In this document: positions 9,918 through 14,310 of the stretch, in pieces
Layout of the letters: every line of letters starts with the position of its first letter
Position numbering within the stretch: the first letter of the stretch is position 1
Virus record (IMG/VR): IMGVR_UViG_2576861478_000002
Length of the DNA stretch: 19,268 nt
From: a virus
Lineage: Duplodnaviria > Heunggongvirae > Uroviricota > Caudoviricetes
Reading direction: 5' to 3' (one strand)
Translations under genes and position numbers: made by a program
The notes under the pieces: generated by a model
Databases searched by the model: none
What the model saw: only the letters and a program-made list of their open reading frames with translations
Told to the model about the DNA's origin: nothing

Positions 9918-10855
9918 TGGAAATCAAAAAAATGTTAGTACCAGAAAGTCGTTATTCAGTTTTATGTCCATATCCAATGAATCCAACGGAAATTACATTC
10001 CACAACACGTATAATGATGCTACGGCATTAAACGAACGTAATAATGTCGCTAACAATAGTACAGGTACTTCGTTCCATATCGCTGTAGATGACAAAGAAG
10101 CTATTCAATTAATTCCGTTTAATAGAAATGCTTGGCATGCAGGTGATGGGAATGGACCAGGTAATCGTAATAGTATCGGTATAGAGATTTGTTATTCTAT
10201 GTCAGGTGGGGAAAGATATCGTAAAGCTGAATTGAATGCCGCTCAAGTAATTCGTCAGTTAATGGATATGTTCAACATTCCAATTTCTAAAGTTAAAACA
10301 CACCAAGAAAGAAACGGTAAATATTGTCCTCATAGAATGATTAATGAAGGGCGTGTACAGTGGTTTAAACAACAATTAGTTTCTGGTGGGGAAATTCAAA
10401 TTCCAGAAACGCCACAGATTCCACAACCACCAATTACAAGTGGTACAGGTATTGTTTATATTACTGGTCAAAACGTGAACTTACGTAAAGGACCAGGGAC
10501 TCAATATGATTCAATTAGGAAACTAAATGCACCTGAAAATTATAAAGTGTGGGGACGTTCTGGCGGATGGCTTAATTTAGGTGGCGATCAGTGGGTTTAC
10601 GAAAACTCAGAGTGGTTACATTTCGAAGCGGATGGACAATCATCCACAACTTCGCAACCTTCAAATGATGGTTTAGGGGTAGTTACTATTACAGCAGATG
10701 TATTACGCGTTCGTACTGGCCCAGGAACTAATTATGGCGTCGTAAAAAACGTACACCAAAGCGAAAGATATCAGTCTTGGGGATATAGGGACGGTTGGTA
10801 TAATGTTGGTGGTGATCAATGGGTTTCAGGTGAATATGTAAAGTTTGAAAAGTAA
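9917..10855 (+). CDS. Endolysin: N-acetylmuramoyl-L-alanine amidase (Amidase_2) with two SH3b domains
   Basis: ITFHNT, SFHIAVDD, AWHAGDG, SIGIEIC and H..NGKYCPH motifs; two VNLRKGPGT / LRVRTGPGT SH3b repeats. Confidence 0.95.
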   Translation: MEIKKMLVPESRYSVLCPYPMNPTEITFHNTYNDATALNERNNVANNSTGTSFHIAVDDKEAIQLIPFNRNAWHAGDGNGPGNRNSIGIEICYSMSGGERYRKAELNAAQVIRQLMDMFNIPISKVKTHQERNGKYCPHRMINEGRVQWFKQQLVSGGEIQIPETPQIPQPPITSGTGIVYITGQNVNLRKGPGTQYDSIRKLNAPENYKVWGRSGGWLNLGGDQWVYENSEWLHFEADGQSSTTSQPSNDGLGVVTITADVLRVRTGPGTNYGVVKNVHQSERYQSWGYRDGWYNVGGDQWVSGEYVKFEK

Positions 10856-10984
10856 AACACATTACTATACAAAAGAATAGTTTTATTATAAAAGAGGAAC
10901 GTGTTAATTTTATATGTAATTAAAATTTACTTTTAATATAGGGTTTATGATTGGAGCCTATGTGTATGTGAAATAGGGAATAGA

Positions 10985-11016
10985 AAAAAAGCATTCGTCC
11001 CCAAGAATGCTTTTTT
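10985..11016. terminator. Bidirectional intrinsic terminator after the lysis cassette
   Basis: AAAAAAGCATTC-GTCCCCAA-GAATGCTTTTTT, a perfect 12-bp stem. Confidence 0.8.
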
Positions 11017-11097
11017 CAATAGATTTATCATAAAAGGAGAAAAAATCACTGTCGATTTCATTATATGTAGGTACACCGTGTAATATGCAAAACATAC

Positions 11098-11103
11098 TAA
11101 CAT
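11098..11103 (+). promoter_or_regulatory. -10 half (TAACAT) of IS110 circle-junction promoter
   Basis: Lies exactly 17 bp from TTGACT (12709-12714) once the right end is joined to the left end through the AA core. Confidence 0.7.
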
Positions 11104-11290
11104 TAGTAGTACAAACCAAGGCCACGGTTTGTGCTACTATTTTTTTTAGTAGAAGTGAAGTAAGGTCGAAAGGTGTCTTGGACCATATTGGAGTCCGTAT
11201 AAATAAACAGATCGACTTCACACCCTTATTTGAATCAGTTTAGTATGTTGGATCCAGGAGATCGTGTATAAGAAAGTGGAATCGATAAGG
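11104..11290 (+). ncRNA. Putative IS110 bridge RNA (5' hairpin, target-binding loop, donor-binding loop)
   Basis: Hairpin 11104-11139. Loop 1 (11155-11221) carries AAGGTGTCTT, the reverse complement of the right flank 12725-12734. Loop 2 (11231-11284) carries TTAGTATGTT, the reverse complement of the left end 11091-11100, and TAAGAAA, identical to the right end 12720-12726. RNA ends are approximate. Confidence 0.8.
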
Positions 11291-11336
11291 CACTGTGGAG
11301 GCTTCTATGATTGGCAAAAAAGGAGAGATTCATGTC

Positions 11337-12557
11337 ATGCAACACGTTGTAGCTTTTGATGTCAGTATGGGTAAAAGTATGATGGTTATTTACAATCGAT
11401 ACCGTCAATGTGAAGTAGAGAAGGAAATTAACCATAACCGTCCCTCTTTTGAACAGCTTCATGAAACGCTTCAGGAACTGATAGGTCGAGGTGGAGAAGA
11501 ACCTGAAATTGTTTTTGAAGCAACAGGTGTATATTCCAAACCGTTGGAACGATTCTTTCAAGATAATAATTATGCATATTGTCGTATTAATCCTCTTGAA
11601 GCAAACTTACAACCGGCTTCAATGCGCCGCCAAAAAACAGATAAAAGCGACGCGCATGAACTGGCAAAATCGCACTTTCGAGTAGGACGTGAACAAACGT
11701 ATCAAGAAAAGGGATACTACCAACAGATGCGTGGACTCACACGTTACTATGATGAGTTAGACATTGAGATTACTCATTTATATTCTCGGTTACACGCAAT
11801 CCTACAATTGAGTTTTCCAGAGTTGGAACAGCTATTTACAAAGCGGTCGTCCCTGTTTTTGAATATCGTACAACTATATCCACACCCGGATGAAGTGTTA
11901 GCCCATTCTAAAACGAGAATTTGCAGTAGGTTAAAGGCAAATACACAAAAACGGTTGTCTTTGAAACGAGTAGAAGAGAAAGGAACCGCCCTCCTTAAAG
12001 CTGCAAAAATCTCTTACCCAGCAATCTCAAGAAACGATGTACGCTGCGAGCAAGTCAAAGATTATGCCAGCCGCATTGCAGACTTGAAAGAGAAGAAGGC
12101 ACAGCTTGTAAAGCAGATGGTGGAACTTTCTAATGAACGTACAGAATATCATGTGCTTCGGTCATTTCCAGGAAGAGGGGAAATAACAGCCGTTCGAATC
12201 ATCGGTGAGTTAGGTGATATAAGACGTTTTAAAAATAATAAGCAATTAAATGCCTATGTGGGGATTGATATTAGGCGTTATCAGTCAGGGAATACTCATT
12301 ATAAGGACAAAATCAATAAAAGGGGAAACAATAAACTAAGGAAAATCTTATTCTTTATGGTTACATCGATGATTACATTACGTAAGAAAACAAAGAATCA
12401 TCTGGTAGAATACTATGACAAATTAAAGAAGCAACCTTTGAGAAAGCCTCATAAAGTTGCATCCGTTGCGTGTATGAATAAGTTTTTGAAAGTGGCATTT
12501 CATCTTATTACACACGAAAAACTATATGATTACGAAATAGCATCAACCGGTTCGTAA
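11337..12557 (+). CDS. IS110-family recombinase (transposase)
   Basis: AFDVS (D), FEATGVY (E), KTDKSDA (D,D), C-terminal YQSG serine motif and KRGN..LRK. AGGAG RBS favours ATG 11337. Confidence 0.97.
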   Translation: MQHVVAFDVSMGKSMMVIYNRYRQCEVEKEINHNRPSFEQLHETLQELIGRGGEEPEIVFEATGVYSKPLERFFQDNNYAYCRINPLEANLQPASMRRQKTDKSDAHELAKSHFRVGREQTYQEKGYYQQMRGLTRYYDELDIEITHLYSRLHAILQLSFPELEQLFTKRSSLFLNIVQLYPHPDEVLAHSKTRICSRLKANTQKRLSLKRVEEKGTALLKAAKISYPAISRNDVRCEQVKDYASRIADLKEKKAQLVKQMVELSNERTEYHVLRSFPGRGEITAVRIIGELGDIRRFKNNKQLNAYVGIDIRRYQSGNTHYKDKINKRGNNKLRKILFFMVTSMITLRKKTKNHLVEYYDKLKKQPLRKPHKVASVACMNKFLKVAFHLITHEKLYDYEIASTGS

Positions 12558-12708
12558 TCAACTAAATATACTATAGCACAATTGACCTCGCGAAAAAAAT
12601 GATATCTCGTTAGGTCTATTTGGTGTACACAAATTTATTTTTTAGAGGAAAGATACCCATCACTCTAAAAAATAAATTACTTCATCGAATCAAATCTTTC
12701 AATAGCAC

Positions 12709-12714
12709 TTGACT
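12709..12714 (+). promoter_or_regulatory. Outward-facing -35 (TTGACT) in IS110 right end
   Basis: 10 bp inside the right-end core; pairs with the left-end -10 in the circle. Confidence 0.7.
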
Positions 12715-12724
12715 AAAGGTAAGA

Positions 12725-12756
12725 AAGACACCTTCCCCAGTCGAAGATGTCTTTTT
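12725..12756. terminator. Intrinsic terminator that was the IS110 target
   Basis: AAGACACCTTC-CCCAGTC-GAAGATGTCTTTTT. The empty site restores the upstream A4 tract from 11089-11092. Confidence 0.75.
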
Positions 12757-12978
12757 CATGTTGTAAGTTCTTTAGATGTCAATTCTAGAGTATGCAGTTT
12801 ACATATATTTTATACCATAATAAGTTATAAGCCCTACTTGCTTCATTATTACGAATCTGTAAACCTCTCCCGTGTATCTTGCTAAACACAACTAAGAATG
12901 TCATAAAAGTTGTTGGCAATAGCCCGATCTGTCACAACGTGTTGGGTTGTATAAACCAAGTTTTTTACACGGATAATC

Positions 12979-13007
12979 ATTTTACATCTTCTTTTTTATC
13001 TCGTCAA
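12979..13007 (-). promoter_or_regulatory. Sigma-A-like promoter TTGACG-N17-TAAAAT facing the 12725 terminator
   Basis: Reverse complement of 13002-13007 and 12979-12984, with a 17-bp spacer. Confidence 0.55.
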
Positions 13008-13012
13008 GTTGT

Positions 13013-13213
13013 TTAGAATAACGAGAGTTGTTCACCTTCTATTTGTTGAACGTCTATTTGCCATTGGTATAGGTCGCCCATTCTTCTTTTTAATTCAGTT
13101 TCTATTCCGTGTTTTGCATGCTCAACTGTTGGTGCGTAAATTTCAATAAACTTTTCTTTGTATTGTTGCCCACTGGGAGAGAAAACACTATAAACGATTT
13201 GATATTTTTTCGT
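13013..13213 (-). pseudogene. 66-aa hypothetical protein (KKYQIVYSVFSPSGQQYKEKF...QLSLF) with start codon ACG instead of ATG
   Basis: Open frame with GAGGTGA RBS. The homologous position in repeat copy 2 (16591-16593) is ATG. Confidence 0.65.
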
Positions 13214-13560
13214 GCTGTATCACCTCGAAAGTTGTATAGATAGCAGTATAGCAACTGTATTGTTAGTATGGTAAAGAGATGTGGTTTTTAACAACCTATT
13301 GGAAAAAGAAAAAACACCTCATTATGAAGTATCTTTTCCTGTGTTTCAATCCAAAAGAAAGATGACAAAACTACAATTCTTGTAAGACACCAAAAGGGAA
13401 CTACAGAAGTGTGTTCTCAATAAGAGTATATAACAGCGCATAGAGTAGGGCAAGTATTACTAAGATATTCCCCCACAATTCGTAGTTTTCATTGTATTAA
13501 CCACCTTTATTTTTTATGAATATACTCTTTTTTAGTTATTCGTGAGAGAACCCTCTGTTA

Positions 13561-13827
13561 TTACATCCTCATAATGGTTTTATAAAAAGCTTCTGCTTGT
13601 TCTTCTCCGTGATCTAATAAAGTTAAATACTCATCAAAAAAATCGAAGATTACAGAAACTTGATGATCTCGTAATTTCATATGATTGACAACGTACATCG
13701 TACCTTGAGCAGCAAGTTCATCTGTATAAGTCTTTTTTTTGCACATCCATTCTTTCCACATGGTTAATGCACGTTCGATACATTGCTTATCTGCTGCGAA
13801 ACGTTCGTATTGCGATTTCGTTAACAT
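13561..13827 (-). CDS. Hypothetical protein (88 aa), copy 1
   Basis: GAGGAGAG RBS; frame conserved in both copies. Confidence 0.8.
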   Translation of the reverse strand: MLTKSQYERFAADKQCIERALTMWKEWMCKKKTYTDELAAQGTMYVVNHMKLRDHQVSVIFDFFDEYLTLLDHGEEQAEAFYKTIMRM

Positions 13828-13842
13828 ATGTAGCCACTCTCC

Positions 13843-14034
13843 TCATTCTTCTAACATTTCCTCATAGGTACTCTTGTAAAAATCAAATAGTCCCTGATTA
13901 TTTAATTCTTGAACAATATGATGTATTACCTTAGTTGACACCGGTTGTGAAAATCCAGCAGCAATGGCTGAAAACTCTATTCTCTCAGAATAGTAACAAA
14001 TATATGCCAGGTCATATTCTTTGAGTTTACACAT
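13843..14034 (-). CDS. Hypothetical protein (63 aa), copy 1
   Basis: GAAAGGA RBS before ATG 14034; conserved in both copies. Confidence 0.75.
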   Translation of the reverse strand: MCKLKEYDLAYICYYSERIEFSAIAAGFSQPVSTKVIHHIVQELNNQGLFDFYKSTYEEMLEE

Positions 14035-14310
14035 CTGTTTTCCTTTCATAACTATTTTTTTCATTTTGGTTGCACTATTGTGTTAATTGCGTCTAACAAG
14101 TTGGTGCAGTGCAAAAATGGGCGTTTTTTTTATTGCTATGATATTTAAAATTTACTTTTAGATAATGCCTTTAGTATTGGATTAATAATTCTACCGATTA
14201 AACGAAATCCTCTAAATATTAATTGGACAACCTTCATATAATCATCCCCCTTAAATTAAGTAAATCATACCAATTTCATGCAACAACTGTAAATGTTCGT
14301 TTCTAATTTA

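Follow-up and report, generated by a model that had tools for sequence, protein, structure and literature searches.

A putative bridge RNA with mirrored guide order in an IS110-group insertion sequence from a Caudoviricetes genome

In the bridge RNA of IS621, the 5′ strand of a loop base-pairs to the left half-site's bottom strand and the 3′ strand to the right half's top strand (Durrant et al., 2024, PMC11208160). An insertion sequence in a Caudoviricetes record of IMG/VR (IMGVR_UViG_2576861478_000002; the whole stretch of 19,268 nucleotides that was analyzed is called the window) raises the question whether this order is a general rule. A preliminary description had claimed that the left end of this element encodes a bridge-type guide RNA, which matches the element's own target and donor junctions in reversed polarity. 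Here, we ask whether such an RNA is likely to be encoded there, what its loops match, and whether the reversed order is genuine. We favor the reading that this is an intact IS110-group element with a bridge RNA in mirrored IS621 geometry, and we put its probability at roughly 0.88. The claim of a bridge RNA has held up because four lines of evidence converge: the Pfam domains of the recombinase, a three-part RNA fold with compensatory pairs, the covariation of guides and flanks, and an empty site.

Boundaries of the element and its recombinase gene

The element and its gene have the following coordinates.

11091..12726, + strand: IS110-family insertion sequence, delimited by homologue alignments, assembly-graph branches and the empty site of provirus L071
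11337..12557, + strand: recombinase gene, 406 aa (P0001), identified by Pfam domains and motif alignment to IS621
11320-28, + strand: ribosome-binding site AAAGGAGAG, read from the sequence ahead of ATG 11337

The element is intact and 1,636 bp long (~1.63 kb), with a left end of 246 nt upstream of the gene. Homologues from Bacillales align with it from query position 1 to 1636, and assembly graphs fork at 11090 and at 12734/12740. Because both ends fall within A tracts, each boundary is uncertain by ~2 nt. More than 30 homologous copies, 66-84% identical at the DNA level, were found in Bacillales genomes and on plasmids of the B. cereus group, and the full-length copies align from element position 1 to ~1636. 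Using megablast, the element had no match among phages and only distant copies among plasmids. Searches of the phage collection with the flanks returned nothing useful. The nearest record, provirus G001, is 99% identical to the window as far as 10894. The next 3.2 kb of the window (10895-14132, the element and ~1.6 kb of flanking DNA) correspond to ~160 bp in G001 (10395-10557), and the element therefore occupies a variable accessory slot of the prophage. We ruled out G001 as a clean empty site, since the whole of 10895-14132 is replaced by these ~160 bp.

The recombinase gene is the single long ORF of the element, with a likely start at ATG 11337 and its end at 12557. Its product matches PF01548 (DEDD_Tnp_IS110, E 4e-19) and PF02371 (Transposase_20, E 1.5e-22), both over the curated cut-offs, and is a distant match to the structures of IS621 and ISCro4 (E 5e-12 and 8e-11, respectively). 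The catalytic motifs FEATG, KTDKSDA and RRYQSG line up with EATG, KTDxxDA and RRYxSG of IS621. P0001 hence combines a DEDD RuvC-like domain with a C-terminal Tnp domain that contains the catalytic serine. Just past the stop codon lies a conserved hairpin (window 12584-12616, GACCT...GCGAAAAAA...AGGTC), the stem of which shows compensatory changes in relatives (CCCT/AGGG, GCCTT/AAGGC); a GC-rich, terminator-like hairpin follows it.

The predicted left-end RNA and the matches of its guides

Comparison of homologous left ends predicts an RNA with a 5′ stem-loop and two internal-loop modules, which would carry four guide strands.

11104..11139, + strand: predicted 5′ stem-loop of the bridge RNA, 14 consensus pairs, several of them compensatory (e.g. 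CG/UG/UA, AU/GU/GC)
11155..11221, + strand: predicted target-binding loop module (RNAalifold consensus, 23 sequences)
11155-60/11216-21 and 11164-67/11210-13, + strand: outer stems of the target module (consensus fold)
11180-96, + strand: inner hairpin of the target module, GGAC 11180-83 / GTCC 11193-96
11170..11179, + strand: putative 5′ target guide AAGGTGTCTT, exact 10/10 reverse complement of 12725-34, a hypervariable block of the alignment
11200..11207, + strand: putative 3′ target strand TAAATAAA; the corresponding strand of relatives is identical to left flank and core, in the window only AAA is
11224..11290, + strand: predicted donor-binding loop module (consensus pairs)
11224-36/11279-90, + strand: outer stem of the donor module (consensus pairs)
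11251-63, + strand: inner hairpin of the donor module, GATC 11251-54 / GATC 11260-63
11240..11249, + strand: putative 5′ donor guide TTAGTATGTT, exact 10/10 complement of core AA plus left end CATACTAA (11091-11100)
11269..11275, + strand: putative 3′ donor guide TAAGAAA, exact 7/7 identity to right end TAAGA plus core AA (12720-26)

The consensus fold was derived from an alignment of 23 non-redundant Bacillales left ends. It contains 44 pairs, 11 of which are compensatory, with both sides changed and the pairing kept; examples are 11164/11213 (GC in 17 sequences, AU in 6) and 11183/11193 (CG in 16, UA in 7). A structured RNA with two internal loops is thereby predicted in the end of the element. 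By hand tally, the consensus pairs comprise ~55 G.U cells and 3 A.C cells, an excess which indicates that the putative RNA is read from the + strand, on which the recombinase gene also lies. Together, the compensatory and G.U pairs argue for selection acting on the RNA fold. Alignment of 23-37 homologous left ends shows a conserved scaffold in which the 5′ target strand forms the one hypervariable block; the donor module is far more conserved than the target module.

All of the stems that had been proposed from the window alone are found in the sequence at the positions given, among them the outer stem GTGAAG 11155-60 / CTTCAC 11216-21 and inner stem GGAC/GTCC of loop 1, and the inner GATC/GATC stem of loop 2. 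The outer stem of loop 2 (11231-36/11279-84, one A.A mismatch) is extended by CCTTAT 11224-29 / ATAAGG 11285-90. A further TCGA/TCGA stem in loop 1 is present in the window copy, but the comparative data favor GGTC 11164-67 / GATC 11210-13, one register off, where GC is replaced by AU in 6 of 23 sequences. When the full left end was folded, RNAalifold paired 11091-98 with the donor guide. We attribute this pairing to the guide's complementarity and treat it as an artefact, since transcription should begin downstream of the candidate −10 box described below.

No matching family was found in Rfam 15, which gave one sub-threshold chance match only. In the RNA-library runs X15, X17 and X19 the element is present as contigs, which cannot show transcription, ends or strand, and a run with raw reads (X24) had no reads on the stretch. 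In the fragmentary X19 assembly, 11090-11538 is better covered than the gene body, and we do not count this as expression. Parts of the left end are also found in other contexts. Solitary copies of the left terminus and 5′ hairpin, 49-53 nt long and separate from any remaining element, occur at L031/L032, at L033 and in plasmid hit H32. In a Trichococcus copy (L008, 2419-2500), both guide loops are absent; the recombinase gene is intact, and left terminus and 5′ hairpin are retained. Judged from its sequence, this copy would need a bridge RNA in trans.

The exact match of the 5′ target strand to the right flank had been pointed out before, and AAGACACCTT has indeed only two exact occurrences in the 19-kb window, as reverse complement in the guide at 11170-79 and at the right junction (12725-34). 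The preliminary description had named covariation of 11170-79 with the flanks of homologous left ends as a check. In the 16 homologous copies with both guide and right flank, a mean of 7.5 of the 8 variable guide positions match, compared to 4.16 of 8 for shuffled pairings (sd 0.17, maximum 4.69 in 2000 trials). This is far beyond chance. In nearly every relative the 5′ guide is the reverse complement of the right flank. Unrelated guides match their own flanks (guide/flank: GCGGACGC/GCGTCCGC, TCACCCTC/GAGGGTGA, CCAGCCGC/GCGGCTGG and TTTGATAT/ATATCAAA), as does the window guide (AAGGTGTC/GACACCTT). On B. cereus-group plasmids, the pair TTTGATAT/ATATCAAA agrees at 8/8 positions, and GGGTGCTT/AAGCATCC and GGGTGTCT/AGACACCT at 7/8 each; plasmid copies of this group also carry a related guide, GGGTGTCTT. 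On the evidence of these pairs, the window guide is one of several apparently programmed variants. An exact-pattern scan for the target loop of the window found none in viral contigs and two chance matches in unrelated GC-rich metagenome contigs.

In relatives, the 3′ strand of the target loop matches the left flank at 2.52 of 4 variable positions, compared to a null of 1.48 (sd 0.16), and none of 5000 shuffles was as high as the observed value. Complete 4/4 matches include CCAC, TAAG, TACA and CCCA. The 3′ strand covaries clearly with the left flank, although more weakly than the 5′ strand does with the right flank. Target covariation is accordingly seen on both sides of the insertion across the family, and in the window copy itself on the right side only. 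There, the 3′ strand matches its own left flank at 0/4 variable positions and the match is confined to the A tract. The second target guide (AAATAAA, 11201-07) had been recognized as the weak point of the guide RNA proposal, and only its AAA matches the left flank. A second left junction from other strains (…CTTT-AAA) fits the 3′ target strand of the window no better. Two explanations are conceivable: in this lineage the 10-nt 5′ guide and the A tract may do most of the work, or the cognate left half-site may be among sequences unseen so far. A plasmid copy from Bacillus sp. JAS24-2 (L068) has mixed flanks: the left flank matches its own 3′ target strand at 4/4 positions, and the right flank, by contrast, is targeted by another guide lineage (AGACACCC...), which points to two element copies having recombined.

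In the donor loop, the matches noticed before were recovered in full, with TTAGTATGTT (11240-49) being the exact reverse complement of 11091-11100 and TAAGAAA (11269-75) being identical to 12720-26. The 5′ donor guide and the left end are both conserved in all relatives, and the 3′ donor guide is kept as (T/A)AAGAAA. The two donor guides overlap on the AA core and cover both ends of the element, which is the complementarity to a circle junction known from bridge RNAs. The same junction would create a promoter from two half-elements.

11098..11103, + strand: candidate −10 box TAACAT of a promoter that would form only in the excised circle (from the sequence)
12709..12714, + strand: candidate −35 box TTGACT of this circle-junction promoter; CTTGACT is conserved in the right ends of most relatives, a few have ATTGACT

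When the ends are joined via AA, the result is TTGACT-17 nt-TAACAT, with a spacer made of 10 nt of right end, AA and CATAC. We consider this a candidate junction promoter. A joint of right end to left end, as expected for a circle, was not seen in the RNA-library contigs.

Empty alleles and the insertion site

An empty site in related genomes, which had likewise been proposed as a check, was found in the IMG/VR provirus L071 and defines the target.

12725..12757, + strand: target, made up of core A(A) and GACACCTT, the latter forming the 5′ arm of an intrinsic-terminator hairpin with a T tract behind it (from the L071 empty allele)

The empty allele of L071 reads ATATGC-A6-GACACCTTCCCCAGTCGAAGATGTCTTTTT. 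Window positions 10635-11092 and 12721-14058 are contiguous on this provirus, which joins 11092 to ~12721. Since the site is uninterrupted in L071, the insertion lies within the A tract directly 5′ of GACACCTT. The count of A residues is not balanced: there are 6 in the empty allele, compared to 4 to the left of the element plus 3 to its right in the occupied site, and a model with a 2-nt core predicts 8; the L071 strain is only 92-97% identical to the window. Copies of one and the same element also differ by 1-2 A at the right junction (L040 vs L060; L038 vs L059). These differences may reflect either a register slip in the A tract or drift in homopolymer length.

A second provirus (L070) carries the right half-site behind AAAAATAAT, uninserted. 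Contigs of run X17 contain two further right junctions, which have AAGACACCTT in common past the right end and then diverge; a second left junction forks at 11090. Together with that of the window, at least three right junctions therefore carry the 10 nt specified by the guide. Most relatives examined have a right flank that starts with the 5′ arm of an intrinsic-terminator hairpin and lies behind an A tract; such terminator-foot flanks were found at L036, L058, L044, L060, L038 and L059, at L065 (2100-2160) and in the window (12724-12757). Judged from these flanks, the clade seems to be aimed at terminator feet in general, much as group IIC introns are. Insertion between an A tract and a terminator stem would explain how the elements spread in phages and plasmids without hitting coding sequence.

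Guide order, group assignment and a possible third architecture

The 5′ strands of the loops are the reverse complement of the right flank (target) or of the left end (donor), both in the window and throughout the relatives examined. They do not follow the IS621-type rule, in which the 5′ strand of each loop has the sequence of the top strand of the left half-site. Reversed polarity had been proposed for the window copy; the alignments extend this mirror image to all relatives examined, and the mirrored order is a real, family-wide trait. In other respects the element resembles IS621 (structures 8WT6-8WT9). Both have a recombinase with a DEDD RuvC-like and a Ser-containing Tnp domain, a guide RNA (here predicted) in the left end upstream of the gene, and the order of 5′ hairpin, target loop and donor loop. 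In both, each loop would read both DNA strands in a staggered manner, the guides overlap on the core (CT there, AA here), and a candidate split promoter spans the circle junction. Besides the mirrored guide halves, the differences are 5′ guides of 8+2 nt, with a target guide that pairs with one core nucleotide only in most relatives, a distantly related recombinase of 406 aa rather than 326-328 aa, and a target at an intrinsic terminator's foot. Core sequence (AA) and guide length (10 nt) had also been presented as unlike IS621. They do differ from IS621 with its CT core, but they are within the diversity already reported (published guide lengths are 8-14 nt).

The same order of matches is known from another branch of these elements. 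In IS1111-type seekRNAs, the top-strand complement lies 5′ of the bottom-strand match, and the IS110-type ISEc21 has the opposite order (Siddiquee et al., 2024, PMC11187229). ISEc11, ISPa11 and ISKpn4 share this order with the window element, and their matches overlap at the insertion point as well. However, IS1111 elements encode their RNA downstream of the gene, possess 11-13-bp subterminal inverted repeats and have recombinases of 330-350 aa (PMC11187229); none of these three features is found here. One alternative has to be weighed first, namely that the element is a member of the IS1111 lineage whose guide RNA gene was relocated from a downstream to an upstream position. Its polarity would then be ordinary and its RNA position unusual. 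The guide order itself fits such an origin, and there are rare IS1111 members with an upstream non-coding region, e.g. ISMtsp17 (Siddiquee et al., PMC11187229). Nevertheless, other features argue against it. We found no subterminal inverted repeats of ≥7 bp when comparing the first and last 60 nt (the IS1111 group has 7-17 bp); the best repeats are 5-6 bp, none of them at matched subterminal positions, and the best aligned one is 5 bp. The predicted RNA is located in the left end (11104-11295) and not in the right end downstream of the gene, and the recombinase is larger than the ~330-350 aa of the IS1111 group. Furthermore, the closest unnamed sequence to the clade in Durrant's recombinase table has the clade's C-terminal motif GIDI.RYQSGNT...INKRGN and adjoins ISL4, ISLhe4 and ISSsu7 (ISfinder, Firmicutes). 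Durrant's tables list these nearest named relatives in the IS110 group and place their bridge RNA in the left end; the literature searched gives no guide order for them. Assignment of the element to the IS110 group is thus supported by the published criteria and by Durrant's tables, used in place of a recombinase tree, and we consider descent from the IS1111 lineage unlikely.

Less probable still is that the left end is a structured mRNA leader or a DNA binding site of the recombinase, with a complementarity to the flank that is coincidental or a by-product of hairpin-rich targets. The targets are indeed palindromic terminators, so that the other arm of the window hairpin fits the guide at 9/10 positions, and the bridge RNA is here predicted from the sequence. 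But independent lineages have different guides, each of which matches its own right flank at the junction and at a fixed distance from the right end. The second loop reads both element termini, and the pairs with compensatory and G.U changes indicate that the RNA fold is under selection. An IS621-like polarity, with the mirror image arising from wrong boundaries or from an RNA on the minus strand, is the least probable reading: boundaries within A tracts are uncertain by ~2 nt and hairpins form on either strand, but the ends are fixed by the empty site and by >30 homologues, an RNA from the minus strand would turn ~55 G.U cells into A.C mismatches and put the long guide 3′, which is unlike IS621 too, and none of the relatives' 5′ target strands resembles its own left flank.

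A bridge RNA in mirrored geometry would act as follows. The RNA, made from the strand of the recombinase gene and upstream of it, would consist of the 5′ hairpin and two internal-loop modules. The 5′ strand of the target loop would pair with the right flank, at the base of a terminator hairpin. The 3′ strand of this loop would be meant to match the left half-site plus core, pairing with the bottom strand. The 5′ strand of the donor loop would pair with AA-CATACTAA and its 3′ strand would match TAAGA-AA, so that the two guides would jointly cover TAAGA-AA-CATACTAA as the circle junction. Strand exchange at AA by the DEDD/Ser recombinase would then yield left flank-AA-left end ... right end-AA-right flank. 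The cassette of RNA and recombinase would be turned round with respect to the polarity inherent in the recombination site, and the counterpart of the IS621 'top' strand would hence lie antisense to the recombinase gene. What we infer is the synthesis and binding of the RNA, the existence of a circular intermediate that carries a junction promoter, and the chemistry of strand exchange as well as its order.

Reading of element ends and flanks by a bridge-type guide RNA is a mechanism that has been known since 2024, and our data support that it applies here; in the literature searched, the mirrored layout is reported only for the IS1111 branch. The preliminary description could not tell whether the reversed polarity was already catalogued. 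For IS1111-type seekRNAs it is (PMC11187229), but for an upstream RNA in the IS110 group we did not find it in the literature searched. The combination of upstream RNA and IS1111 guide order is not stated in the 2024 IS621 and seekRNA papers, a 2026 review or recent preprints, and large covariation surveys may well contain it without comment. A preprint on a 'half-match' was rejected as precedent, since it concerns donor-only recognition and not a half-site match.

Tentatively, and with the odds somewhat against it, we propose a more far-reaching view. Guide order might be uncoupled from the position of the RNA gene, and a widespread Bacillales clade might represent a third architecture, with the RNA upstream as in IS621 and the guide order as in IS1111. 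Its cassette would be inverted with respect to the polarity of the site, the first strand to be exchanged or copied out would be the one antisense to the recombinase gene, and the whole clade would be aimed at the A-tract foot of terminators. If true, the IS110 and IS1111 layouts could be linked in evolution through this architecture, which could also supply Gram-positive bridge recombinases with 10-nt and 7-nt guides.

The mirrored clade leaves the known mechanism unchanged. Bridge RNA recombinases are under development for programmable genome writing, and nearly all of their design rules derive from the IS621/ISCro4 clade. Left and right guides of elements such as this one would be mislabelled by pipelines and models built on the IS621 order, and guide order as a published criterion for telling IS110 from IS1111 does not track where the RNA gene lies. 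Mirrored guides in a natural, apparently active multi-copy clade with its RNA still upstream would mean that the cassette can vary in its orientation to the recombination site, and the clade would offer a testable handle on which DNA strand exchanges first.
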